This document shows, piece after piece, positions 7,761 to 22,416 of a DNA stretch of 48,791 nt (position 1 is the stretch's first letter; each line of letters begins with the position of its first letter). This DNA is from Chrysochromulina tobinii (lineage: Eukaryota), in assembly GCA_001275005.1 (NCBI GenBank), contig JWZX01003146.1, positions 1 through 48,791 of the forward strand, read 5' to 3'. The position numbers were made by a program, and so were the translations under genes. The notes under the pieces are model-generated. The model saw nothing but the letters and a program-made list of their open reading frames with translations, searched no databases and was not told the origin of the DNA.

Positions 7761-9443
7761 CTATTGCCCTGAGAGCCAGCCGTCAACCGTCGCCTTCTGC
7801 TTGTGAAGCGCATCCATCGTCTTACATGTGCCCTGTGACCTCCGGCGCACCGCTGCGAGCATCGTCTCGCCCACTGCGCCGTGCCCGCGTAGCCTGGCCT
7901 CGAGAGCCGCGAGCCGCGTCGCCAGGCTGATCAACGAGGTGCTATGTGCCGGGAGCAGCTGCATCAGCGTCTCGGCGTGCTCGGCGAGCGCACGAACGGC
8001 GAGGGCGATGAGCGCAGGGGCGGCGCGTTCTTCCCCAGCGAGGGCCTCGAGCGCTTGGCAGCGCAAGGCGCGCGTCTGCACCGCTATCCAGTGTGTGGCT
8101 GCGACCTCCCTCTGGAGTATTCCGAGGGCGCCTTCAGCTGCGCTTCGCGCGTCCTCCCAACTGTCGTACTGCTTCGGCTTGAACCCGACGATCTTGCCAC
8201 GCAGTTTCTGGACGCTGAAGACGCTTGCGTGCGCACGGCGCGCGAGGTTCATGTCACCGTCAAGGTCGTCCAAGAGCTGGTCGACTGGATCGAGCTCCTT
8301 GAGGGCACATGCGCTCGCGGGCTGGGCGCATCGCGAGCAGCCGCATTCAAACCCAAAGAGCGTCGCGAGGAAAGCACGCCGCTCGCTTCGCGGGAGGGTC
8401 GCGAGCTCGTCCTGATAACAGATGGTGAGCTGAGCTCCTGCGGGCACCTCATCGAGGGTGTACACGCGCGCCCGGCCGCTCGCCGCCTCGACTGGCGTCA
8501 ACGTGCAGTTCGGCCAGCACGAGTGGTTCAACATTGAGACTCTCTCGTAGATGAGTCCGATCGGATCCTCGATTCCTTCGATGCGCGTCTGGAAAGCATT
8601 GTTGATGACGGCAGCGTGCGCGGCCATGGCGTCGGCTTCGCTCACCCCCTTCATCTCACGCAGCCACATTGCCGCCGCCTTGGCGTCGTCGCCGCCGTCA
8701 CGGGGCGCCCCCGGCGCAGGACGCAGACCCGTCGCGCGATTGAGCAGCTTCCGAGCAAGGACCAGTGCAGCCATCGTGCCTGCGACGTCGTCGTCCTCGC
8801 TGTGCACTATGTGAGGCCGTTCCGTGAGAACGACGCTGCCGGCGGGGAGGGCGACACGCGCGTACAGGCCGCGCTCGCCGTCGACCTCCCGTTGCTCGAC
8901 GAGTGGAGACAACGCCGCAGTCTCAAGCTCAGCCACCGTGCCGCCCAATGACGGATTGTAGCAATGGTGGGCCGCACGATGTACGAGAATGGCCATTTCG
9001 ACCGCACTGCTGCATGAGGAGGCACCATTGAGGACGACCTGCGCGCAGGAGCCGAGTTGCTTAAGGCGCGCATCCTTGGTGCCGGAGGCAACATCGGCGA
9101 TGGCAGCATGCACCGCCCGCTCCGAGTCGTGCGATACGGGAAAGCGCAGCACGTCCTCGTCTGCTGCCCGGCCAACGTGTGCACAGCGAACACGCGACAA
9201 GAAGCGGCGGATCTCGAGTGGAGAGAGCGGCAGCGAATTGCCAACGCATTCCAGTGCAGCGAGGGCAGCACGGCGTAGGTCTTTCGACGCATCGACGGCG
9301 GCACCGCGGTCTTTGGCTTCATCGACAGACGTGGAGTCCTTGGGTTCATCGACGGTAGCGAAAAAGTCCTTGATGGATCTGCGAAAGACTATTGCCGCTG
9401 CGCCTAGAGCGGCGGCCAGAGTAAGAGCGATGGCCTTCGACAT
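7761..9443 (-). CDS. SET-domain (SMYD-like) lysine methyltransferase with N-terminal hydrophobic anchor
   Basis: RGLYA, NHSCWPN, QLTICY and post-SET FECGCSRC. An in-frame TGA directly precedes the ATG. Confidence 0.85.
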   Translation of the reverse strand: MSKAIALTLAAALGAAAIVFRRSIKDFFATVDEPKDSTSVDEAKDRGAAVDASKDLRRAALAALECVGNSLPLSPLEIRRFLSRVRCAHVGRAADEDVLRFPVSHDSERAVHAAIADVASGTKDARLKQLGSCAQVVLNGASSCSSAVEMAILVHRAAHHCYNPSLGGTVAELETAALSPLVEQREVDGERGLYARVALPAGSVVLTERPHIVHSEDDDVAGTMAALVLARKLLNRATGLRPAPGAPRDGGDDAKAAAMWLREMKGVSEADAMAAHAAVINNAFQTRIEGIEDPIGLIYERVSMLNHSCWPNCTLTPVEAASGRARVYTLDEVPAGAQLTICYQDELATLPRSERRAFLATLFGFECGCSRCAQPASACALKELDPVDQLLDDLDGDMNLARRAHASVFSVQKLRGKIVGFKPKQYDSWEDARSAAEGALGILQREVAATHWIAVQTRALRCQALEALAGEERAAPALIALAVRALAEHAETLMQLLPAHSTSLISLATRLAALEARLRGHGAVGETMLAAVRRRSQGTCKTMDALHKQKATVDGWLSGQ

Positions 9444-9448
9444 TCACG

Positions 9449-9459
9449 TGGCTCCTTTG
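9449..9459 (+). repeat. Target-site duplication, left copy (TGGCTCCTTTG)
   Basis: Identical to 21071-21081. The edge bases overlap the microsatellite, so the true length may be 9-11 bp. Confidence 0.9.
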
Positions 9460-9502
9460 AGTGAGTTGTGAGTGAGTGAGTGAGTGAGTGAGTGAGTGAG
9501 TT
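9459..9502 (+). repeat. 5'-terminal (GAGT)n tract in two runs: GAGTGAGTT + GT(GAGT)8T
   Basis: Read directly from the sequence. It is the reverse complement of the 3' tail unit. Confidence 0.95.
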
Positions 9503-9505
9503 CGA

Positions 9506-12500
9506 ATGTCGGGCGTCTTGCTCGCGTCGGCTCCTCCCCTTACGGTAACTCAGAAAAATAGCGCGCGCGGCGCGACTGGCGCAACGTACGTCCAGGCAGA
9601 CACACACAACCAGGCAGCATCACGACGCCCACGCAAGCCAACGCTGCCCCGCCCGCATGCAGCGGAAAGAAAAAGGGGGGTCCAACAGGTCAACGTCACC
9701 ATGCAGGACTCCATGCGGCTATTGTCTACGGTGACACAGACGGGCGACAAGCAGATCGGCAGCACCACGATGCCCCCGCAAGCCAACGCTGCGGCGCCCG
9801 CATGCAGTGAAGAAGAAAAAGAGGGGCTAGACATCTGCAGACAACACGCCTTTTTGGCAGGGCTCAAAAGACGATGGACAAGAACCACGCGCGCGCATAC
9901 GTCAACGTCACCACAAACCAGGCAGCACACTCCATCGGCAGACTACGCTTCGAGCTCAACAAGCTCGCCGCGCTGGGCAACCCGCAGACAGCCGCACACG
10001 CCATCCGGCTGCTCAAATGGGCAGCAGCGCAGCAGCAGCGACGTCTCGCAAAGAAGATTGCCCAATCTGACGCGCGCGACGTCACAGCACGCGCCGCTGC
10101 ACAAAATGACGATGATCAGAACGATGACGACAAGATTGATTGCGAAAATGAACATGACGATGATTGCGATTACAGCAACGATTGCGACCACCAGCAGCGA
10201 CTGCCCACGCAGCTCAAAGCGTTACCCCGCGCCGGAGCCGAGGCGCGAGCCCGCTGGGCCCTCGCCCGCGCCAGCGGCGCACTGTACAAGAATACGTGCG
10301 GCACGGGCAACGCAGCCGGCACTGCCGAAGCCCTCCGAATTTGGAACCACATCTCCGTCGTCTGCTGCCGAGTCGACTGCCACGCACTCGTCGACCTCAA
10401 GGCGGCACGCCGCCAAGCCCGCGCCCAAGGCAGAGCAAACTTCATCCCTGGAGACGGGTGCGCGGGACCGTTCTGCTCCGCTGATCACCGACGAAACCGC
10501 TTTGCAAACCGGCAGCTCGCCCAAGCCGACCAGATCGACCGCGGAGAAAGACTGCTGGCCCGCTGGCCCACCGACCGAATGGACAAGGAAATCTACGTGT
10601 ACAACAACGAGCACGCGAACACAAGAGCAGCCGAAGCCCGACAAACCGCCAAACGCCCGACTGCCTAATCCCATGAGAGCGATACTGATTGCAGCGACGA
10701 TCATGATGACGACAATGATGACGATGACGATAATGACAACTGCAATCATGATGATAGATTCGAGTACCAAAACTAATGACCCGAGTACCATGACCCGAGT
10801 ACCAAAGACGATGATGAGAGTGAAGAACAACTTGACTGTGATGAGTAGCCTCGACCTCACCACTGACAACGATTCTCCAAAGCCCATCAAGTTGATGAAC
10901 CCATCGGATCTCACGACAATGAAAGAGATGAACCTGATTGCGACGACGATTATGATGATGATGATGATGACAGCAGGTGACAGCGACGGAGCCGAAGGCA
11001 CGAACGGCACCGCGAACGACGGCAACAGCAACGACGCCGGCGACAGCGGAAACAAAGGAGGCGCCGATGGCGACAGCGCCGGCGGCAGCAAGGGCAGCGA
11101 CGGCAGCGGCAACGGCAGCGGCGGCAAAGGCGGCGGCAGCGGCGGCAACCCCGGCGGCAGCGGCGGCAACCCCGGCGGCGGCGGCGACAACCCCGGCGGC
11201 AGCGGCGACAACCCCGGCGGCAGCGGAGACAACCCCGACGACGACGACGAAGCGGATGGCGAAGCCGATGGCGGAGACGAGCCCACCGACGAGAATGCTG
11301 ACAAGGACGACACGAAGGACATCCCAAGACATCGATGGGAAGAGACGTATAGCCCATCATGGACGAACCCACCCACAACGCACGTCGACCAACAAGAAAG
11401 GCAAGCCATGCTAGCTGCGCTGGAGATCCAACGCCTACTTCACGGAGCAGCCGCGCGCGCCCGGCTCCTGGTACGCGCCGACGAACGAGAGCCGAATATA
11501 GACTGGCCACCGAACAATTGCACTGCCGATCAACTCCAAGTACTTGAAGAGACAGCCATCAAGTCCATCTACACGTTCGCGAGCAGCCCTGAGAAGATCA
11601 ACGAGAAAGAGCTGACCACCATCTTGGACTACATCACACGAGCTGAAGAGATACAAGAGATCGACAACATCAACTTATCCTACATCATCACGGAGAATAC
11701 GTCAAACTTCCTGTACCAGTGGATGATACGACACAGCGGCACGTACCCAAGACAACAAGTACGGAAGGGACTCAGGACGCTGGCCGTAAAGGTCGCGGAG
11801 GCGGAGACCAAGGCAGAGCAAGACCGCATCGTCTACGCACGGCTAGCCCAACACGCAGAAGAAGACGGCGAGCACGAGCACAGCTACTACAAGTTGGTCG
11901 CCACCAACGTCAACGGTCGACTACGTCTCAAAGATCGTGAACACCTTCTTCAACAAGACGATGAGACGCTCGATGACGAGGCCGTTCGAGGCGATCAGAC
12001 AATGCAAAGGGAACCCGACTGCGCCCTCTCAACAATCTTAGGCTGGCTGCAAGACCCGACGTCGAACGTAGCGGGCGTGTGGGCCGTCGAGACGCACCTC
12101 AACGACAAGGACGCGGACGAAATCATCGACCACCTGAGCACTTTCCATCCGGCCATCGGCATGCTAGTCTCGATCAAGATCAAAGAGGACTCTAGCGCCG
12201 GGCTTGCTTTTCTGTACCGCGTCGACGTTCTTGAACCCCTCACGCCCCTGCAGCCTCCCTTTGCATTCCACACCGCAGATGGGCATCTACATCCAAAGCC
12301 AGACCGCCTGCCCAAACCTCGACCCGAGAATGACCGACTTGTAAGACACGTATGGCATGGCCGCCTCGCCGATATCAGACTAAAGTGGAGCCGCGACTCG
12401 ACCGAGATGATCACTACGGGCGTCTACGTGCCGCAAGTCAATCGCGAGGCCGACAACATCCTGTGGTTCGAGATGGCTACCCAAGATTGGAGCACGTACA

Positions 12501-15500
12501 ACGCTCTCCGAGGTGCACAGGGCGACTTCAACGCGACGCCACGCTACACAGGGAAGAAGCCCCAGACGGCGCAGAAGCAGGCGAATCAACGGCTCGATCA
12601 ACTCCTAGCGACGACAAAATCCGAGCCGATCGGCGACTTGGCTCAATGGACTCACCAACAACCTGTAGGGACGGCCGGACAAGCACCCGATGCCAGAGGC
12701 GTTACAAGAACCACCATCGACCTCAACGTCATCGGCGAGGCGCTTGCACCGCGCTTGAAGGCCTGCGATGTGATGCCCAAGACGAGCGGCGACAAGAGTT
12801 TTCACAGGTCGGTGGGCTACTACTACAAGGTCAGAGGCCAGGAACCAACGAAGGCACAAGTGGCGCGCCCCAGCACCATCGACAAGATCGGCAAGTCAAA
12901 AAAGGAAATCGAAAGCGAGACGCCAACAGGCTGGAAACTGTGGATCGACCTGATGCCCATCGCCGTGAAAGACGCCGCCTGTCTGCTGAACGGCATAGCG
13001 CCAGGAGAGCACATCAGGCCGGACCTGGTCGCAGCAGCATTCTCAAGGTCGAACCCGGTCACCGCCATCGCCGTATTCAAGTACCACATCATGGAGACTG
13101 CCCTCGACCTTCAACGCGAGAAAGCGGGCAAGGGCATCAAGCAGACGACGAAGACAGAATATCTACGAGGACTCGAAGAAAAATGGATTAAGATGATCTC
13201 GACGGTCAATGCGCTGCCCGAGGACGACAAGAGCTTCGACAAGCATGCGGAGGTCAGGCCGGAGTACGAAGCCTCCTTCAAGATGAGAGAGATACCGAGA
13301 GCGATCGTCAAGCTCCCCGAGCTCAACCTGAACAACAAGGCGCGCAAGGCCCGCGAGATGGCACTCGTCGAGAAGGCCTACAATGCTGCCGTCGAAAAGT
13401 ACTCGAGGCGACTCAACGACGCCACGCTCGACCTGCTCGCAGAGGAGATGGAGGAGCTCTCGGAAAAGACCGAGGCAAGAGGCGGGTTCCAGCACGAGGC
13501 GTGGCGCCTAGCCAAGGAGCACTCGATCGCAGCGCGCACCAAGTCCTTCCAACCGAGGCACGCGTCCGGCATCAACACGCTGCAGCTCGATGAGAGTGCC
13601 AAGAAGGGCGAAAGCCCGACGGTATCGGGCGACAAGTTTCGGGTACTCCTCGCCAACAGATACGCAGCGAAACAGGCCGCGCGCCCCGGCCACCCCGGCC
13701 CATGGCTGCACCTCGCCGACGCCGTGAATCTCTTGCACCCCCAGCACGCAGACATCAGTACTGATTCGTCGGCCGAAGATGGGATTCGCTACGACCACCC
13801 CTCCCTGAAATCCGTGATTGAGACCGGAGCGTGCCCGGCCCGCGCTCAAATCCAGCACGCGACCGAGATTGAGTCCATCATGATTGCCCTCGACCATATG
13901 CAGAGCAGCCTCGAAGCAGATACGCGCAGAACTTTTGAAGCGTTTGATTCGCAGATCAACAGAGTCAAGATGAACATGGCCACTGGCACGGACAAGTTTC
14001 ACGCCTACTTCATCCGCAAAGGAGGAGCGCTGGGAAAGAAGGTGTACAAGTACCTGCTCTCAAGGCTCTACGAAGCTGAGATGATGGACAAGGCAGGCCT
14101 GACCTGGCAGATTGCAATGGCGCTCAAGGCCAAGCGCAACCCGCACACAGTCAAAGGCTACCGCGACATTATGGTCAGCTCGCACGACTGGAAGATCATC
14201 ACGGGATGCATGGGGAGCCAATACCAAAGGTGCGTCGAGCGCCGCCGTCCAAGTGAACAGATCGCCTACGAGAGTGGAACCTCGAGTTCGTGCACTCGGA
14301 TCACACTCGGTCACCGCGCGCGCACGACTTTGGCAATGCACCAAAGAGAAAGGCGAGCTGAGTTTATGTCCGACTTTAGTTCATTCTTCCCGAGCATCAT
14401 CCACAAGGTCGTTTTCGAAGCAGAGCGACGAGTCGGAGCCCAACGGAGTCACACGAGGATGCTTTGGGCAACGCACGCGAGAGTAGTCGCGTCGATCCGC
14501 ACGGCCTCAGGCATGACGCCAACGAGACCAATCAACCGAGGCGTCGGCCAAGGCTGCAAACTGGGCGGCCCCCGATCACTAATCGTCACCCTACCCATCA
14601 TCGAGCTTCAACGGCAATGCGTTCCGGCACAGAAGCTTATCGCCCCCAAAGGATTTGGCAGGCACGGTTGTACAAGTTGGATGAGCGACGACCAAACCTC
14701 CGACCCACCGCCTTTTGACAGTCTTGTACAGCTCGCAATCGATGTCTTCATGCACGGCGCCGAGCTTTGCGCCCAACTCCAAGTAGATCATGAAGCAGAA
14801 GCAGCCGACAAGACGAGCGCGAAGCTCTCGCACTACAAGGACAGAGGCACGGTCTGCACCGACGACGAGACAAACTTTGTGCACGTCATCAAGCAAGCAG
14901 GTCGACTCGCACAGCGACCACTCGCAAGATGCCAAGAGTACAAGCAGATAGGCACAGAGAGCACCCATGGCACCAACTTTAGCGCCATCGTCAAGAGGAC
15001 CACGGACAACATCATCGCTCTGATCACGCACGTCTCCAAGCTCGGCGTCACCAATGCGGAGCACGACATCCGGATGGCCAATTCCATCATCTTTGGGACG
15101 CTCTCTTTCCCAAGCCGAGGTACGCCCTTCCCCGCACGTGACTTGGAGCGAATCTCAACTGCCTGCCGACAGGTGCTTGTCAACCACGGCCATCTCAACA
15201 AGTCCGAGCCGGCCGCGATCAATTTTGCCCCGCGCAGTGCAGGAGGACGCGAACAAGTCGTTCCGCAGGCAGTGGCCGATGCATCGCTCGTCACGCAGAC
15301 CTTGTTGCTCCTCAACAACGCCGATGGAGATCGCGACAAGGCGGCCATCGAGAGCCTCTTCTTCGTCAACGCGTGCGCCTTTGGATGGACGAGCACCATC
15401 GAGGAGCCAAACCCGATCGATTTCGACGTAACCGAGGTACAAGATCTCCTACTCGAGGCGCTGCCGTGGGACGCGTTCCAGCTCGCGTTGATCCGCCTCG

Positions 15501-18500
15501 AACTACGCATCAGCAAAACTACGCGAGACAGCCAGAGCGCATGCTCACTGCGAGCGCACGTGCCTGCAGACGCCATCCCGCCCGAGGAGAAGCTCGTCCA
15601 CTGGAACGAGGCGGACAACTCCAATCTCAGGTCCCCGCGCATCGAGCCCGGTGGCAGGCCACCATTGATGCCCCGATGGCCACGATCCCGGCGATTGTGC
15701 TTCTTAGGGTTGCACAGGTTTGACCAGCTGCTGCTAGGAGTACGACAACCGTTCAAGAGGCCAACGAAGAACGAGCAGTCGAGCCGCGGCGAAGGATTCG
15801 CTCACGACGGCTACAAATACTTGGAGCCCGAAGGACGAGCCCATGGGTGGTACCCGTACTACGCCAACGACCCGACCGTGTCCGACCTGTTCCTGCACGA
15901 CCAAGACTCTCTCTCGGCGATCGACGAAACCACGATGCGCGACTACCACGTCACGGTCCGATTCAAATCGTTCACGACGCTAACCGCAGAGCTTCGAGAA
16001 CGTCACGTGCACCTAGATCAAGAAGACCGGAGAAATCTCTCGGCGCTCTGCGAGATCTTCAAAGCTGCGCACCGCTACGAACAAGGCACGAACGACCTTA
16101 TCGACGCGATCCATGCGTTCGCGCACAAGGCGGCCACAGCGATGCTCGAGAGGGACCAGGAAATGCTCGAGAACATCGCAGAGTTTGCCCAACAGCAAGC
16201 AGGGCAACGACTCGGCGACAAGTTCGTCTTCATCGGCCGCAAGTTACGAGCTCAACGACCGCGCGAGGAAATGTTGGAGCAGATCAGGAAGAGCGAGGAG
16301 GTCACCGAGCACACGGACGAGCACGTCTACGAAACACAGCGTGAGTACAGCGAGCAGCACACGTACGAGTATCTGAGCAGGGAGGCCATCATTGACATCG
16401 CCACCAAGTACGAGAATGCGTGGGAGCATGAGAGGAAGACGTTGCCAAGGGACCTTGTCAAGTACCTCAAAACAGGAAGCCTGCACACTGCCGCCGAGTG
16501 CATCGCCGCGCTCCAGGAATCTGACCTACGCGGTACTCAGGCCCGTTCGTTCGCAGAGCACCTGCAACAGCTGGACGCGAGCGGCACGAGACCTGATCTC
16601 AAGGAACGGCACGGAGCACTTGACGATGAGGCGACCGCAAGAGCGATCATCGCCACTACCGAGGAGCTCATCGGCACGTGGGCGCCGAGCCAGTGGCACG
16701 CGGGAGAATCGCCGGCGGAGACTCAGCTGGTACAAGACCGCACCCGCCTCCAGCGCACATGGCGCCGACCAAGAAGGCAGACGTACGTTCGGGGCGGCAT
16801 TGATGATCGAGGGAAGCACACCCTCTCCCTCGAGCCCTCGAAGCAGGACAAGGCGCACGCTCGACGATTCTTCATGCCTCTCAACCCGTACTCGCACACG
16901 GATTCGTGCTACAGGGCGGTCAACGCATCGGGCGGTCTCCTCTTCAAGAACTCGACGAGCATCTATGACTGCATCAACCCCCAGGTATGCTGCACGCCTC
17001 TCCTTGCCATATTCACCCGCGTACGCAAACTCGAAGACGGCACAGGTATCAAGGTCGTCGACTGGACGGGGGAGGAGATCACGGTCAAGATCCTTGACAA
17101 GGAGAAACTCAAGATGAACGCCGACCAGGACCGCGAACTTCTTCAACGACTCGCTCCAATGGAAGACCAGCGCAAGTACACGGCGGTGTGGTTTGGAGAC
17201 GGCGGGCGGAAGGGCGCTGACGGGGCACTGGACAGGCGCGTCTCTTGGGGCGCTGTCGTCGTATGGAAATCGTGCGGCACGCTGATGCGCAACTACCACC
17301 TTGGCGCGTTGCATCCCGAGTGCGACATCCAACACGGAGAGCTCATGCAGATCTACAAGTCCACGGAGTTTTGCATCGAGCAGCTTCGACAAGGAGAAAC
17401 GGTACGGATGCTGTGCGGCTCTGACTCCCAAACCTGCGCAGATGACGTCGAGGCAGCACGATCGGCACGGAACCACCGAGACTTGCACGACTACGATGCG
17501 AGCATCATGGTCGAGACTATCGTCCACAACATCATGACGATCGAGTCGAAAGGCGGCATCTGGGACCTGTTCCGAGTGCCCGGCCACTCGTACACGCCCA
17601 ACGTCATCGCGGACGCGCTAGCGACGGCAGCCCAAACATGTCAACAGTTCAGCCAGGAGGTCGAGATGAAGACGGACCGGGCTTTCGTCGTGCTCTGCGA
17701 CCGCACGGAAGATCAACCTTTCTGGCTGCAGTACGACAAGGGCGCCAAGATGTTCCGATACCTACGTCTTCGAGGTCAACAACGCAGAGTCGAACGAGAA
17801 CTACGAGAATTCCACGCCAAGCACGCCAAGAATCTCATCGCCCAGACCAAGCAGGATCAGGCCTTCAACCTCATCGAGATCATCAAGATGAGGCTGAAGA
17901 GCTCTTACGGAGTCCCGCTCTCGAGAGCGATGCTCGACCGACGAGCCCTTGCCCTAGCCCAAGAACAACTAGAACACGAACGGATCGAAATGCAGAAGAA
18001 GCTCGACACGATCATCTACCCGATCCTCAACTACGACGCCCTCCCAAGCCTTGGCATCAAGATGGACGCGCCGCGATGGACGACCGCGGTCGAGCAGTTT
18101 GTGGCAGAACCTTGGCTCACGAGATCAGCGACCAGGTTCAACGTGTCGTTCCAATTCGCCAACACCGCCCTCCGCACGGATGCCAGCGTCATCCCGGGCG
18201 TTACGGTGTGCCCCTTGTGCAAAAGAGATGTGAGCCCAACGGTATGGCACTTGATGACCGAGTGCACGCTGAAGACGTGCGAGCTTAACATGCCGCACCT
18301 CCCGCCAAGAGTACCTTTAACGACGACTGCCCAAGACCCAACGTCCACAGACGACGAAGCGACAGCCCCTTCGGCGAAAGTGGCCAGAGGAAGCAACGCG
18401 TACCTGGCCCAGGAGATCTTGTGGACGCTGCGAGAATTCCGACCTGCAGGCGAAGCTTGGCCAACAGACCTGCTGGAGCCGAACGAGAAAAACACCTTCC

Positions 18501-19936
18501 TGAAGGAGTTCAACAGGGCCTGCACGACGCTCGAGCTCTCGTGCCAGAGCCGCCAGCACGATGAGGATCGAGGAGTACCGCCGGTACTGGACAATGACGG
18601 CGAGATCGCCAAGTTTGACACGCTCCGCTTCCTCGCTTGCCACCTACCTCGCGATCCGCTCGCGTCGGTCTTCAAGATGCCCAAGGACGAGGAGGGCAAG
18701 GTGAACAAGAACCAGGCCGAAGAAATGCACGAGAAGAAGAAGACGTTCTTCGAAGTGTGGGAGCGACTACACCAGCTGATAGTCGAGGCCATCAACCAAG
18801 CGAAGGCCAAGTACAACCGCATGAGCGCGGCAAGCCGTGCAGCATCCCGAGAAGACGATCAAGCACCACAATTCCGAGAGACGAACGCCTACCAGATCAA
18901 CGAGACGACGCCAGCACGAGCCGAACGAGCACAAGCACAACGGAGCCATCGAGATGAACGGAATGAAAGGCGGAGCGCTGCCGACCTCCTCGAGCTGAAC
19001 AAGAAGAACGAGATGCAGAAGAAAGGCAACCACTTCAACAAGGTCGTCGCCACGTCCCAGATCGGCCACATGTTACAAGCAAGGATCGACGGGCACGTGA
19101 CGCTCTCGCAGCCCTTCGTGCTACCAGCGAATCTGACTTTTGTCGAACGGACATCGAGATGGACGCGAATGGCTGAACCCACCGGCGCAGGAGAAGAAGA
19201 AGAACACGAAGACGCGATGGAAGTAGACTCAACAAGGAACTCAAGCAGACTATCTTACGATGCAGACGACGATTCGAGCAGACGACAATCCGAAGGGAGC
19301 TCCCTGGTCAGCTCGAGGGCGGTGACGCCGCCACCGAACTCTTGGGGAGCATTGGCAGATGATGACGAGGGCAGCTACAGCGGAATTTACGACGAAGGCA
19401 GTGACATGAGCGGCAAAGGCAAGACCAGTGACGTCCCGGGCGACGATGGCGGCAAAGGCGGCAGCAGCGAGCTTCAAGGCAGCGACGGCGGCAAGGGCGG
19501 CAACAACAGACGAGGGAGCGGCAAGGGCAAAGGCGGCGATAGTGGAACCCATGGCGGTAAGCACGGCGACAGGAGTAGCGGCAGTGGGCTCAGAGGCAGA
19601 GGCGGCGGCAAGGGCAGCAGCAACGAGTTCCGCAACGACGGCGGTGGCAAGGGCGGCAGTGGCAGGCAACACGGCAGCGGCAAAGGCAAGGGCGGCAGCA
19701 AGGAGCTCCACGACAGCGACAGCAGTAAGCACGACGGCAGCGGACTCCACGATGATGGTTCTAGCTCAGCAGGGTCAAAGAGCAGTCACCACAGCGCAAA
19801 GAACGGCAGCAGACGGATGATTAAGAGACAGAAACGTGCAGAACAACGAAGAGAATTGAGCAGCGACAGCCACGCGGCTCAACAATCAGCCGAAGACGCA
19901 AGAGCAGAACAACCGGAGAAGAAGCAGAAGCAATAA
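9506..19936 (+). CDS. Retrotransposon polyprotein: APE endonuclease (~11885-12820), reverse transcriptase (~13970-15255), RNase H (~17180-17630), CCHC knuckle (~18209-18265). True start uncertain, possibly 10673 or ~10952
   Basis: APE: ATNVNG, VETHL, GDFNA, TIDL, SFH. RT: ATGTDKF, GYRDIMV, EQIAY, DFSSFFPSIIH, RGVGQGCKLG, MSDD, YKQIG, APRSAGG. RNase H: WFGDGG, HGEL, SDSQ, VPGH..NVIADALA. Zinc knuckle: CPLC-x8-H-x4-C. The frame is open for 3476 codons. Confidence 0.9.
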   Translation: MSGVLLASAPPLTVTQKNSARGATGATYVQADTHNQAASRRPRKPTLPRPHAAERKRGVQQVNVTMQDSMRLLSTVTQTGDKQIGSTTMPPQANAAAPACSEEEKEGLDICRQHAFLAGLKRRWTRTTRAHTSTSPQTRQHTPSADYASSSTSSPRWATRRQPHTPSGCSNGQQRSSSDVSQRRLPNLTRATSQHAPLHKMTMIRTMTTRLIAKMNMTMIAITATIATTSSDCPRSSKRYPAPEPRREPAGPSPAPAAHCTRIRAARATQPALPKPSEFGTTSPSSAAESTATHSSTSRRHAAKPAPKAEQTSSLETGARDRSAPLITDETALQTGSSPKPTRSTAEKDCWPAGPPTEWTRKSTCTTTSTRTQEQPKPDKPPNARLPNPMRAILIAATIMMTTMMTMTIMTTAIMMIDSSTKTNDPSTMTRVPKTMMRVKNNLTVMSSLDLTTDNDSPKPIKLMNPSDLTTMKEMNLIATTIMMMMMMTAGDSDGAEGTNGTANDGNSNDAGDSGNKGGADGDSAGGSKGSDGSGNGSGGKGGGSGGNPGGSGGNPGGGGDNPGGSGDNPGGSGDNPDDDDEADGEADGGDEPTDENADKDDTKDIPRHRWEETYSPSWTNPPTTHVDQQERQAMLAALEIQRLLHGAAARARLLVRADEREPNIDWPPNNCTADQLQVLEETAIKSIYTFASSPEKINEKELTTILDYITRAEEIQEIDNINLSYIITENTSNFLYQWMIRHSGTYPRQQVRKGLRTLAVKVAEAETKAEQDRIVYARLAQHAEEDGEHEHSYYKLVATNVNGRLRLKDREHLLQQDDETLDDEAVRGDQTMQREPDCALSTILGWLQDPTSNVAGVWAVETHLNDKDADEIIDHLSTFHPAIGMLVSIKIKEDSSAGLAFLYRVDVLEPLTPLQPPFAFHTADGHLHPKPDRLPKPRPENDRLVRHVWHGRLADIRLKWSRDSTEMITTGVYVPQVNREADNILWFEMATQDWSTYNALRGAQGDFNATPRYTGKKPQTAQKQANQRLDQLLATTKSEPIGDLAQWTHQQPVGTAGQAPDARGVTRTTIDLNVIGEALAPRLKACDVMPKTSGDKSFHRSVGYYYKVRGQEPTKAQVARPSTIDKIGKSKKEIESETPTGWKLWIDLMPIAVKDAACLLNGIAPGEHIRPDLVAAAFSRSNPVTAIAVFKYHIMETALDLQREKAGKGIKQTTKTEYLRGLEEKWIKMISTVNALPEDDKSFDKHAEVRPEYEASFKMREIPRAIVKLPELNLNNKARKAREMALVEKAYNAAVEKYSRRLNDATLDLLAEEMEELSEKTEARGGFQHEAWRLAKEHSIAARTKSFQPRHASGINTLQLDESAKKGESPTVSGDKFRVLLANRYAAKQAARPGHPGPWLHLADAVNLLHPQHADISTDSSAEDGIRYDHPSLKSVIETGACPARAQIQHATEIESIMIALDHMQSSLEADTRRTFEAFDSQINRVKMNMATGTDKFHAYFIRKGGALGKKVYKYLLSRLYEAEMMDKAGLTWQIAMALKAKRNPHTVKGYRDIMVSSHDWKIITGCMGSQYQRCVERRRPSEQIAYESGTSSSCTRITLGHRARTTLAMHQRERRAEFMSDFSSFFPSIIHKVVFEAERRVGAQRSHTRMLWATHARVVASIRTASGMTPTRPINRGVGQGCKLGGPRSLIVTLPIIELQRQCVPAQKLIAPKGFGRHGCTSWMSDDQTSDPPPFDSLVQLAIDVFMHGAELCAQLQVDHEAEAADKTSAKLSHYKDRGTVCTDDETNFVHVIKQAGRLAQRPLARCQEYKQIGTESTHGTNFSAIVKRTTDNIIALITHVSKLGVTNAEHDIRMANSIIFGTLSFPSRGTPFPARDLERISTACRQVLVNHGHLNKSEPAAINFAPRSAGGREQVVPQAVADASLVTQTLLLLNNADGDRDKAAIESLFFVNACAFGWTSTIEEPNPIDFDVTEVQDLLLEALPWDAFQLALIRLELRISKTTRDSQSACSLRAHVPADAIPPEEKLVHWNEADNSNLRSPRIEPGGRPPLMPRWPRSRRLCFLGLHRFDQLLLGVRQPFKRPTKNEQSSRGEGFAHDGYKYLEPEGRAHGWYPYYANDPTVSDLFLHDQDSLSAIDETTMRDYHVTVRFKSFTTLTAELRERHVHLDQEDRRNLSALCEIFKAAHRYEQGTNDLIDAIHAFAHKAATAMLERDQEMLENIAEFAQQQAGQRLGDKFVFIGRKLRAQRPREEMLEQIRKSEEVTEHTDEHVYETQREYSEQHTYEYLSREAIIDIATKYENAWEHERKTLPRDLVKYLKTGSLHTAAECIAALQESDLRGTQARSFAEHLQQLDASGTRPDLKERHGALDDEATARAIIATTEELIGTWAPSQWHAGESPAETQLVQDRTRLQRTWRRPRRQTYVRGGIDDRGKHTLSLEPSKQDKAHARRFFMPLNPYSHTDSCYRAVNASGGLLFKNSTSIYDCINPQVCCTPLLAIFTRVRKLEDGTGIKVVDWTGEEITVKILDKEKLKMNADQDRELLQRLAPMEDQRKYTAVWFGDGGRKGADGALDRRVSWGAVVVWKSCGTLMRNYHLGALHPECDIQHGELMQIYKSTEFCIEQLRQGETVRMLCGSDSQTCADDVEAARSARNHRDLHDYDASIMVETIVHNIMTIESKGGIWDLFRVPGHSYTPNVIADALATAAQTCQQFSQEVEMKTDRAFVVLCDRTEDQPFWLQYDKGAKMFRYLRLRGQQRRVERELREFHAKHAKNLIAQTKQDQAFNLIEIIKMRLKSSYGVPLSRAMLDRRALALAQEQLEHERIEMQKKLDTIIYPILNYDALPSLGIKMDAPRWTTAVEQFVAEPWLTRSATRFNVSFQFANTALRTDASVIPGVTVCPLCKRDVSPTVWHLMTECTLKTCELNMPHLPPRVPLTTTAQDPTSTDDEATAPSAKVARGSNAYLAQEILWTLREFRPAGEAWPTDLLEPNEKNTFLKEFNRACTTLELSCQSRQHDEDRGVPPVLDNDGEIAKFDTLRFLACHLPRDPLASVFKMPKDEEGKVNKNQAEEMHEKKKTFFEVWERLHQLIVEAINQAKAKYNRMSAASRAASREDDQAPQFRETNAYQINETTPARAERAQAQRSHRDERNERRSAADLLELNKKNEMQKKGNHFNKVVATSQIGHMLQARIDGHVTLSQPFVLPANLTFVERTSRWTRMAEPTGAGEEEEHEDAMEVDSTRNSSRLSYDADDDSSRRQSEGSSLVSSRAVTPPPNSWGALADDDEGSYSGIYDEGSDMSGKGKTSDVPGDDGGKGGSSELQGSDGGKGGNNRRGSGKGKGGDSGTHGGKHGDRSSGSGLRGRGGGKGSSNEFRNDGGGKGGSGRQHGSGKGKGGSKELHDSDSSKHDGSGLHDDGSSSAGSKSSHHSAKNGSRRMIKRQKRAEQRRELSSDSHAAQQSAEDARAEQPEKKQKQ
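9874..10668 (+). CDS. Candidate ORF1 of the retrotransposon, overlapping the long ORF in another frame
   Basis: Strong C/G-ending codon pattern and a natural-looking protein with an acidic tract and a Cys/His cluster (CCRVDCH...CAGPFCSADH). The long-ORF frame over the same bases reads like an out-of-frame translation (T/M/R-rich). Confidence 0.5.
   Translation: MDKNHARAYVNVTTNQAAHSIGRLRFELNKLAALGNPQTAAHAIRLLKWAAAQQQRRLAKKIAQSDARDVTARAAAQNDDDQNDDDKIDCENEHDDDCDYSNDCDHQQRLPTQLKALPRAGAEARARWALARASGALYKNTCGTGNAAGTAEALRIWNHISVVCCRVDCHALVDLKAARRQARAQGRANFIPGDGCAGPFCSADHRRNRFANRQLAQADQIDRGERLLARWPTDRMDKEIYVYNNEHANTRAAEARQTAKRPTA
11140..11236 (+). repeat. 21-bp coding tandem repeat (GGSG[G/D]NP)n in the retrotransposon
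   Basis: About five ggcggcagcggcg(g/a)caacccc units. Confidence 0.85.
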
Positions 19937-20329
19937 GAATAACCGAACAGGATAATCACAGCTCTGAATAGCCCAACTGCATGATTGAGTTCTGATTGCG
20001 AAACGATTAACAGACCGAGGCCGATTCATTAAGAGATTGAGAGAGCATGATTATGAGACTGAATGCGACTGAGAGAGACTGAAACTGAAAAACCAACCGC
20101 GAACGTGATCGAGAGCCGAGTGATTGAGAATACAAAAACAGACAAAGTGACTAAGCCGATGACTAAGATCCTGAGTACACGCTACGAAGGGACTCACGCC
20201 CATGTGATTCTCTCCGCACAGAAGAGAACAATGGCGGCAAACGAGACAGCGAGGCCCTAGAGAGAGAGTGAGAGCAAGAGTGCGAGAGCGAGAGAGCCCA
20301 CAAGACCGAGATGATGAAGGGCGCAACAT

Positions 20330-21050
20330 ACCGCGATGACACGCGCCGAAGGTCGGTCCTCGACAGGTTTACAGCCCCTTGCGTGGCTCAGCCCTAGCCC
20401 GCTCGGCGCGCTGAGGGACCAACTTCTCGGTGCAAGGAGTAACTCCCGAGCCCGGAAGTTCGAGACCGAGATGCTCATTCTGATCGGCAAGGTGACCACC
20501 AAATCCTGTATCTCTGATGGACACAGCCTTAACGGGCGGTCAAGCACGTGAGGGGGTCGCCGCAAGGCTCCTACTCGTTCACCTGGCTCTTCGGAGCCGG
20601 GGCGGCGACCCCGATCTCTCGGCCGGCGGGCCAATGAAACGCAACCGAACGACAGGGGGTCGACGGGACGGACAGTGAGAGGGGGAGGCCCTAACGGGCC
20701 AAACCAGCGGCTCTCTCACGTCCCGTCGACCAGTCGTATGCCATGTGGGTACACACCCGTGCATACCCGCAAGGGACCCACCCACTGCATGACCGATACA
20801 GCGTCTGTTCCTCCCATGGGGGGGTTGGCAGTTTCGCCGGGCAGTGGTGTGGGGCACGGAGAGAGCATAGCGAGTGAGTGAGTTACACTCACTCAGCATA
20901 GCGACGCCCGAACAGGAATCCGTTGGATTCAAAACACGGCCATGAGTATCGGGTGAGGATACTGCATGTGCTGCTATGGTATACCCTATGAGCCTCAGTA
21001 GGTATATCGACCCGTACCCCGTATTGTTCCACGGTGTGTCTGTGTCTCAA
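20330..21050 (+). ncRNA. Highly structured non-coding 3' region of the retrotransposon RNA; function unknown
   Basis: Perfect stems at 20553-20563/20602-20612 (11 bp) and 20658-20670/20719-20731 (13 bp). cUUCGg hairpin at 20582-20601; GGCCC-UAAC-GGGCC at 20687-20700; CCC-GCAA-GGG at 20766-20775; GAATCC-GTT-GGATTC near 20916-20930. Confidence 0.55.
20864..20904. repeat. Mini inverted-microsatellite insert GTGAGTGAGTTACACTCACTC flanked by the 10-bp direct repeat AGCATAGCGA
   Basis: Direct repeats at 20864-20873 and 20895-20904. The 21-bp core has a (GAGT) arm and an (ACTC) arm. Confidence 0.85.
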
Positions 21051-21051
21051 T

Positions 21052-21070
21052 AACTCACTCACTCACTCAC
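21052..21070 (+). repeat. 3' tail A(ACTC)4AC of the retrotransposon
   Basis: Follows AATAA and directly precedes the right TSD copy. Confidence 0.95.
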
Positions 21071-21081
21071 TGGCTCCTTTG
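21071..21081 (+). repeat. Target-site duplication, right copy (TGGCTCCTTTG)
   Basis: Identical to 9449-9459. Confidence 0.9.
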
Positions 21082-21416
21082 GCCCGTTTTCCCCACACCA
21101 GGGGCGACGACCCGGCGCGCGTGGCAACGCTCTTTCGCTCGGCGTCGGAGCCCCAATTCACAATGAAAAAGGAGGGGCTGGGCATGTAATCTCCGTTTTC
21201 CGCTCGGTGGACAGCCCGTCGACCTTAGCGCGAGCCCCCATACATATGAACTCACACCACACGTAAAAGGAGGGTGCTCCCTCGTGTGGGATTTGAGCGC
21301 GACTGTCGCGTTACGTTCACACGTCTATTCATACGTCTCGGCTGGGCAGGTGGCGACTGGCGACCAACCGCCGAGGGGGTCGGGACGCAGTGGCTGGTTG
21401 CCAGAGCGTCCACAGC

Positions 21417-21794
21417 ATGTCGCTCAAGATGACTGGCCAGATGGACTGGCAGGACTATGCCACGTACAGCCAGTACCATCCTGACAACCTCAAAAAGCCG
21501 CCGCTAGTCTTCGCAGATCATGTCAAGGCTCCAGCCCCACTTGCAACGCTCACGGAGATAGACAAAAAGGTCTTCGGCGCGTGGGGCCACGCACTCTGCT
21601 GCGAACCTGCGTATGGAAAGAATGAGACCTGCACACGACTCAAGGAACGCGTCACGCCAAAGGTCGGGCAGACATGGGATAAGGTAATTCGGATAGAACG
21701 GGGAAAATCCATATCGCAGACAGCCATGTACGGCGGCAGCTTGCGTGAGATGTCCTTCGAGGAGATCGTGGAGGCGCGCGGCAAGAAGGGATGA
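21417..21794 (+). CDS. Small hypothetical protein (125 aa)
   Basis: ATG-started ORF with host-like codon use and non-repetitive, globular-looking composition (MSLKMTGQMDWQDYATYSQYHPDNL...). No domain recognised. Confidence 0.55.
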   Translation: MSLKMTGQMDWQDYATYSQYHPDNLKKPPLVFADHVKAPAPLATLTEIDKKVFGAWGHALCCEPAYGKNETCTRLKERVTPKVGQTWDKVIRIERGKSISQTAMYGGSLREMSFEEIVEARGKKG

Positions 21795-22416
21795 GCTGTT
21801 TCCGGCGGCACGCTCGAGCTGACCGCGCAGCGTAGCCGCGCTGGCGCAGGTGCAATGTGATCCGCATGCCCACGTTCAACGTGCATGACAGCAGGGTCAA
21901 AGCCGGCGTCCAGCAGCAGTCGGCGTGTAGCTATGGTACACAGTGCACCCTGCCCATCAGCGCGCTGATGAGTGACCCTGCTACCTGCATGAGCGTGTCT
22001 TTTTCTTTTGTGCCGACGACTGTGAAAGTCTGATGAGCACACCGTACTATAGTTAGAAGTTACGTACGGTACTAGCGGCAGCGGTAGCGGCCTAAGTCAC
22101 AGGTGTATTAGAGCGGTCGAGCCTATCGGAGTAGACACACGCTCACGTCAGCTGGCTGTACTATACAGTGCTCTGTGTCCACGTGTGTACATGAATGTAA
22201 GATTCCTAAAATTTGTTTCCCACGCCGGTGTAGAGACGGGCAGACGCGTATTTCAGATTGATCTGTATCTCAGATTCAGTGAGGAGACAATCGTCGCGAG
22301 CATCGGCCCGGTCCGCGCAACGCCCTGAGCCTCACCCCTGATGGGCCTTTGAGGGGGTGGGCTCGTGACACGTGAGAGCGCTGGACGAGGGCGTGAGGCT
22401 CGCTGCTCGCCCCTGG

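Follow-up and report, generated by a model that had tools for sequence, protein, structure and literature searches.

A structured 3' untranslated region as a candidate reverse transcriptase recognition scaffold in an 11.6-kb non-LTR retrotransposon of Chrysochromulina tobinii

Contig JWZX01003146.1 of Chrysochromulina tobinii (assembly GCA_001275005.1), analysed here as one window of 48,791 nucleotides, raises the question of what role is played by ∼700 nucleotides of densely folded RNA at positions 20330–21050, in the 3' region of a long A-rich element. A preliminary description of the DNA had proposed an RT-binding scaffold analogous to a telomerase or retron RNA, a ribozyme or a captured non-coding RNA. 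Our analysis favours the first of these as the most likely role, but with the structured 3' UTR of an R2-type LINE, and not telomerase or retron RNA, as the right comparison: we give a probability of roughly 60% to the reading, made by analogy, that the fold is a cis-acting scaffold for recognition by the reverse transcriptase (RT), like the R2 3' UTR, and that the family likely uses its tail as the template when priming at both target ends and has a preferred target motif.

As shown in Table 1, the stretch between 9459 and 21070 is an 11.6-kb non-LTR retrotransposon with a 1.1-kb 3' UTR that contains the folded module. Its ends are mirror images of each other, with (GAGT)n at the head and (ACTC)n at the tail. 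Because the 10-bp duplication lies outside both repeats, and because a pre-existing microsatellite target would leave a same-strand repeat on either side, both repeats are part of the insertion. A simple-repeat tail and a target duplication are present and long terminal repeats are absent, as in a LINE.

Table 1. Positions of the retrotransposon, its folded 3' domains, the insertion inside them and the target-site features within the window
Feature	Position	Strand	Remarks
Whole non-LTR retrotransposon, 11,612 bp	9459..21070	+	exact 10-bp direct repeat at both limits; A-rich skew across span
Left target-site duplication, TGGCTCCTTT	9449..9458	+	
Right target-site duplication, TGGCTCCTTT	21071..21080	+	
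(GAGT)n head, ∼11 units	9459..9501	+	one register break; reverse complement of tail repeat
(ACTC)n 3' tail, 4.5 units	21053..21070	+	
Open frame, 3478 codons (uninterrupted, 10.4 kb)	9500..19936	+	no Pfam match
Putative parts of the open frame			APE-like, ∼aa 800–1105; RT, ∼aa 1480–1830 (MSDD); RNase H-like, ∼aa 2560–2710; CCHC knuckle, aa 2904–2922
3' UTR, first part	19937..20545	+	folding not above shuffles (z +0.8 and -0.9)
Predicted domain 1, 11-bp stem around UUCG hairpin	20553..20612	+	z -3.6; pair probability > 0.8
Predicted domain 2, long interrupted stem capped by GGCCC-UAAC-GGGCC hairpin	20649..20737	+	z -5.3
Predicted domain 3, nested stems	20777..20853	+	z -1.6 (20735–20862); 3' strand carries reverse complement of shared target motif
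Predicted hairpin with compensatory pair 20943–20966	20937..20973	+	U-A to C-G
Predicted hairpin with compensatory pair 20980–21006	20978..21008	+	U-A to G-C
Mini-insertion, 21 bp	20874..20894	-	reads as (GAGT) head of 9 nt, then the final two bases of the body, then (ACTC) tail of 10 nt
Mini-insertion target duplication, copy 1, AGCATAGCGA	20864..20873	+	
Mini-insertion target duplication, copy 2	20895..20904	+	
Motif CCCCACACCA in host flank	21091..21100	+	10 bp past main duplication
Motif CCCCACACCA at mini-insertion	20845..20854	-	9 bp past mini-insertion's duplication
Flank 11-mer complementary to module 20693–20703	21078..21088	+	may be chance

The long open frame supplies a candidate binding partner for such a scaffold. 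A search of 1.84 billion protein representatives returned 85 matches to it, and an RT profile built from 69 sequences (the query and 68 relatives) matched L1 ORF2p (2e-75), R2 (2e-58) and group II intron RT (2e-23). The alignment-based model of the RT (pLDDT 87) had L1 ORF2p as its best structural match (TM 0.75; L1 and R2 were the best Foldseek matches), with R2 at TM 0.69–0.71; the single-sequence model reached pLDDT 32, and a single-sequence PDB search gave no match. Further, a FastTree tree of 37 chosen unnamed matches placed the query in a divergent group apart from the canonical RVT_1 matches (support 0.99). Judged by these profiles and models, the RT is divergent and of the L1/R2 type, as expected of a LINE.

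The APE-like, RNase H-like and CCHC parts are assigned from sequence less firmly than the RT. The putative APE motifs (N803, E864, GDFN 1008, TID 1072 and H1102) align with the APE profile of the relatives at E 0.04, SFH stands in place of SDH, the usual APE motif, and the relatives P0020 and P0022 have Pfam APE matches. The RNase H-like part scored 0.93 by Atlas features and only E 0.2 with a dedicated profile, and we take its D-E-D-D motifs as support for the assignment. A restriction-like endonuclease pattern (RHN or PD-(D/E)xK), of a kind that a very divergent domain could escape, was found after the CCHC knuckle in 0 of 4 proteins, and Atlas gave only weak zf-RVT leads for that region.

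Several features of the coding region are recorded as side observations. The active-site motif MSDD (14681–14695, plus strand) is common to the relative P0006; the usual form is Y/F-A-D-D. A second frame of 285 codons (9811–10668, plus strand) overlaps the start of the long frame and is more protein-like (helical, then acidic) than its first 390 residues; from its sequence it is possibly an ORF1-like part joined by frameshifting. P0003, P0096 and P0097 are relatives at 57–90% protein identity. The related proteins P0002 and P0003 begin at a methionine matching residue 392, and P0006 and P0022 carry an extra domain inside the polyprotein (a weak DUF488-N3 match and a DUF4326 match, respectively).

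Every stem and loop named in the preliminary description was found where it had been placed, including the 11-bp stem at 20553–20612, the 13-bp stem at 20658–20731 with its inner TGAGAG/CTCTCA stem, and the UUCG (20590), UAAC (20530 and 20692) and GCAA (20562 and 20769) loops. The 721-nt span folds better than its dinucleotide shuffles (z -4.31 with 20 shuffles and -4.36 with 40), and six control spans of the same length gave z values from +1.2 to -1.6. The dense fold claimed for ∼700 nucleotides is upheld to that extent, but its signal is confined mainly to 20550–20930: 200-nt windows starting at 20551–20751 gave z -3.6 to -4.8 (background, 1 of 79 windows below -3), and 20545–20640 and 20645–20740 gave -3.6 and -5.3, whereas neither 20330–20545 (-0.9) nor 20905–21050 (-0.3) beat shuffles. 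Similarly, the reported loss of A-over-T skew is true of the module as a whole, with a fall from 0.31 in the open frame to 0.06, but not of 20601–20700, where it is still 0.52. Both strands fold well, and the special tetraloops favour the plus strand 5:1. The folding of the 3' UTR is thus real, and, from models and analogy, it probably has a function. As a separate observation, domains 1 and 2 open alike (AGGGGGTCG, at 20550–20563 and 20654–20667, plus strand), perhaps as a duplicated binding site.

Variation between copies was available from a metagenome scan, which recovered, from at least 593 candidates, at least four assemblies (L003, L004, L005 and L006), all of the same insertion locus. 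The variant is a single 250-nt patch in L005 that covers only the last 250 nt, the domains at 20553–20737 lying outside it. Relative to the window it lacks exactly 31 bp, has an extra piece of 8 nt and two gaps of a single base each, and carries 19 substitutions; we infer that it derives from another copy of the family. Two double changes among these substitutions preserve Watson-Crick pairs that were predicted from the window alone (20943–20966 and 20980–21006), one pair being altered by two CpG-type transitions, the other by two transversions. A third double change disrupts a pair, and there the local fold of the variant rebuilds the stem with a bulge. When the same substitution types were placed at random, at least two compensatory pairs arose with P 0.010–0.018 for three long fold spans, 0.001–0.004 for a short fold span and 0.0065 for the dense part; depletion of broken pairs was not clear (P 0.03–0.69). 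The two 3' hairpins retain 23 of 25 pairs in the variant, and slid controls had no double change. In long folds of the variant one of these hairpins gives way to other pairings, and the local fold keeps it. A shuffle control on the two-row alignment (118 of 500) is uninformative with two rows. Overall, the outcome that the preliminary description had named as telling against the module, a fold no better than shuffles and no compensatory changes, was not seen, with the compensatory changes located in the 3' part only, which does not itself beat shuffles (z -0.3). L004 holds a further variant patch, matching window 9994–10240 in the element's 5' part, that comes from a different copy.

One apparent hairpin of the module has a different origin. 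The GAGT/ACTC "hairpin" is a separate insertion inside the module, missed by the preliminary description; it is flanked by the AGCATAGCGA repeat, the only 10-mer repeated 31 nt apart within the window, and from its sequence it is likely a mini-copy of the element. The fold signal is independent of it, because the span upstream of it still gives z -4.0. Junction registers are identical in the 11.6-kb element and the mini-insertion: both 10-bp duplications start and end in T, both heads start GAGTGAGT and both tails end CTCAC. Because these registers match those of the whole element, the orientation of the mini-insertion is fixed independently of any target motif. It is present in L003, L004 and L006 (three of the four listed assemblies match the window here), and L005 has no hairpin and one copy of the duplication; this short assembly variant may have lost the hairpin by slippage between repeats. 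The inserted piece is predicted to pair over 14 bp with the tail in the window copy (-74.4 kcal/mol, compared with -68.1 with the tail forced open), and the fold predicted for the variant that lacks the insertion leaves the tail unpaired (0.8–1.0). By these fold models, pairing with the mini-insertion may hamper priming in the window copy. Zepp reportedly inserts into copies of itself, as the mini-insertion does. DIRS elements have inverted termini and an internal complementary region; a DIRS-like reading was ruled out by the LINE-type RT and by the separate target duplication around the internal piece.

The two insertion sites resemble each other. In their shared orientation, the duplication is preceded by CG and starts with T-x-GCT at both sites, and the motif CCCCACACCA lies beyond it; the 8-mer formed by the first eight bases of the motif, CCCCACAC, occurs at just these two sites when either strand of the window is searched. 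Ten matching bases in a row, with offsets differing by no more than one base, were found at 27 of 48,464 positions in either orientation, and with the orientation fixed at 3 of 48,670 and 6 of 48,680 positions, a null of about 1e-4 to 6e-4 that is post hoc and concerns two events; a wider anchored alignment of the two sites was less striking (65 of 6,921). From these comparisons, the family probably has a target motif preference, with the motif read by protein.

These results suggest how the scaffold might work. The element's own protein would bind the folded 3' UTR and keep the (ACUC)n tail single-stranded and available as the initial template for target-primed reverse transcription. Its endonuclease would make a 10-bp staggered cut ∼20 bp before a CCCCACACCA-like motif, which the protein would probably read; the bottom-strand end (A in both events) would pair with a tail U and start cDNA synthesis, the top-strand end (T in both events) would also be extended on an (ACUC)n tail, either that of the same RNA or that of another one, to give the (GAGT)n head, and the two products would then be joined. 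First-strand synthesis halting two bases into the body would yield the 21-bp head-plus-tail piece, which would have landed in a target-like site within the element's own 3' UTR. The scaffold reading is favoured because the module lies downstream of the stop codon and ahead of the tail, within the limits set by the duplication, and because it combines a fold z of about -4, compensatory changes, an unpaired tail in the variant and an L1/R2-like RT. Two-end priming is favoured because both events share junction registers and have 10-bp duplications starting and ending in T; the mechanism and the target motif are drawn from these two events. In the available sections of PMC10499050, the 248-nt 3' UTR of R2Bm has at least 11 stems and is needed for self-specific priming, a 40-nt core is sufficient, and an upstream motif is read at a fixed distance from the nick. 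By analogy with that 40-nt core, most of the module may serve something else. Consistent with two-end priming, twin or dual priming, with the tail serving both target ends, has been proposed for 39 L1 loci with 5' poly(T) in five primate genomes (PMC2837659, available sections), and LINE 5'-end joining and second-strand priming are called unclear in the part of a 2025 review that was available (PMC12503042).

The main rival, which we regard as unlikely though worth weighing in full, keeps the same scaffold but has the (GAGT)n head transcribed, so that head and tail form a panhandle; the mini-insertion would then result from an RT jump that starts two bases inside the body and ends on the paired head. 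The complementarity of head and tail is exact over 19 nt and covers 23 of 25 nt overall, and such a jump also yields head, two bases and tail with no extra bases. However, the two heads differ in length (∼43 compared with 9 nt), the register break of the long head fits copying that went through the tail and on by one base into the body, as repeated priming leaves, and a transcribed head would need some renewal route.

A somewhat more doubtful possibility is that the stems act in RNA stability, in termination or in the control of translation, or are simply neutral fold-backs, with no part in RT recognition and a coincidental motif. The tetraloop excess is indeed marginal, as five tetraloops only modestly exceed the background (mean 1.9; at least five in 7 of 134 spans, spans overlapping the module counted), a host stretch just past the element (21240–21460, minus strand) that has no Rfam match folds equally well (z -4.1), and what looked like one of the hairpins turned out to be a by-product of insertion. 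The compensatory changes argue against this account, as does the motif null of 3–6 of about 48,700 with the orientation fixed.

Target choice by base pairing is known from the EBS loops of group II introns and from bridge RNAs. We consider it improbable that the module guides target choice here, its segments 20693–20703 and 20845–20854 base-pairing with the top strand just past the cut. Windows of 30 nt with two complements to the module of at least 10 nt number 17 of 48,760, all overlapping and right after the 3' duplication and nowhere else, and in the DNA of the element itself the mini-insertion shows the corresponding spacing to segment 20845–20854. However, the predicted fold has both segments largely base-paired and not in loops, a protein-read motif explains the 10-mer equally well, the flank 11-mer has no counterpart at the mini site, the observation is post hoc and concerns two events, and no LINE precedent was found in the literature searched. 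Equally improbable is the fuller proposal in which the LINE RNA picks its site by pairing and the RT caps both cut ends with (GAGT)n, telomerase-style, at every insertion, which would make the system RNA-guided and potentially reprogrammable. The flank was also considered as a decayed module copy, and this was rejected, the local alignments not being significant (66, 5 and 35 of 100 shuffles reach the score).

Least probable of all is a captured host non-coding RNA or ribozyme riding in the 3' UTR, since the stable plus-strand domains with UUCG, GCAA and UAAC loops, and the ribozymes known in LINEs from the source sections available, are set against negative searches: none of 4227 Rfam families (telomerase, retron, SRP and RNase P included) reached the gathering score, four chance-level matches appearing at E up to 10, and Rfam searches of the window, module and flank gave nothing above chance; HDV-like and hammerhead scans, with patterns written for the known core motifs, found none on either strand of the module or at the element's 5' end; there was no tRNA; and no stand-alone or second copy lies in the window and four loci (118 kb). 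The ribozyme and captured-RNA readings of the preliminary description are therefore not borne out. Searches for other family copies gave two unrelated pattern matches in viral contigs and otherwise none, and none in prokaryote genomes. In the host flank at 21965–22040 (plus strand), two CTGATGAG motifs and a GAAA stand in a loose hammerhead-like order, without Rfam support.

Returning to the scaffold reading with two-end priming, we compared the element with known systems, in each case as these are portrayed in the available portions of the cited papers. Like R2 (PMC10499050, PMC12503042), it has a multi-stem 3' UTR right before the priming end, a related RT fold and a candidate target motif whose distance from the nick is constant. 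Unlike R2, its motif is downstream, its folded part is ∼500 nt compared with 248 nt in R2Bm, it has APE-like and RNase H-like parts where R2 has a restriction-like endonuclease, and it has a microsatellite tail, a 10-bp duplication and a target in a host gene 5' flank and not in rDNA. The L1 loci with 5' poly(T) likewise carry an inverted tail copy at the 5' end within the target duplication, some with tails at both ends, but they are truncated L1s with poly(A) (PMC2837659), whereas the element shows a four-base repeat in both of two events, one of which keeps an uninterrupted 10.4-kb frame while the other is almost bodyless. The nearest architecture is that of Dualen/RandI from green algae and cryptophytes (PMC5029228, PMC3747384), with one very long ORF, the order APE-RT-RNase H-CCHC, a short-repeat tail and an algal host; these portions make no mention of a mirror-image head for Dualen/RandI. 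Because no restriction-like endonuclease motif was found after its CCHC knuckle, we do not file the element as Dualen, and its RT is only distantly related to anything named. UnaL2 and plant L1 elements (PMC3747384) also combine a repeat tail, associated with template slippage, with compensatory changes in a 3' structure, but their structures are single short hairpins, compared with at least five predicted domains here. SART1/TRAS (PMC7265360) share a preferred target; in those elements it is the cut site, within telomeric repeats, that the endonuclease recognises, whereas the best-shared bases of the element would lie ∼20–29 bp from the inferred first nick.

The more unusual features of the element are its mirror-image repeat ends, in both of two events, and the shared motif. 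No LINE family that has RNA-guided targeting, or a microsatellite head that mirrors its tail, is described in the literature searched, which held few subscription papers and no Repbase entries. An inverted tail copy in both insertions would record the fate of the second target end, and the open frame, short tail and candidate target motif make up a system that could be tested in vitro. A candidate for a new sequence-preferring, RNA-specific RT, in a lineage undetected by Pfam, is of interest for gene-insertion tools; RNA-guided target choice, if true, would be a new kind of system, on evidence that is thin.

The host DNA around the element is intron-poor and GC-rich, and the closest named matches by identity of a neighbouring helicase are from Prymnesium and Emiliania (70%; one gene, no phylogeny). 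The insertion point lies 5 bp ahead of the ATG of an oppositely oriented SET-domain gene (7761–9443, minus strand), which the 11.6-kb element cuts off from its upstream region. On the other side, a 125-codon ATG frame without a Pfam match is present at 21417–21794 (plus strand); together with the SET-domain gene, it would place the insertion site within a short divergent promoter region.
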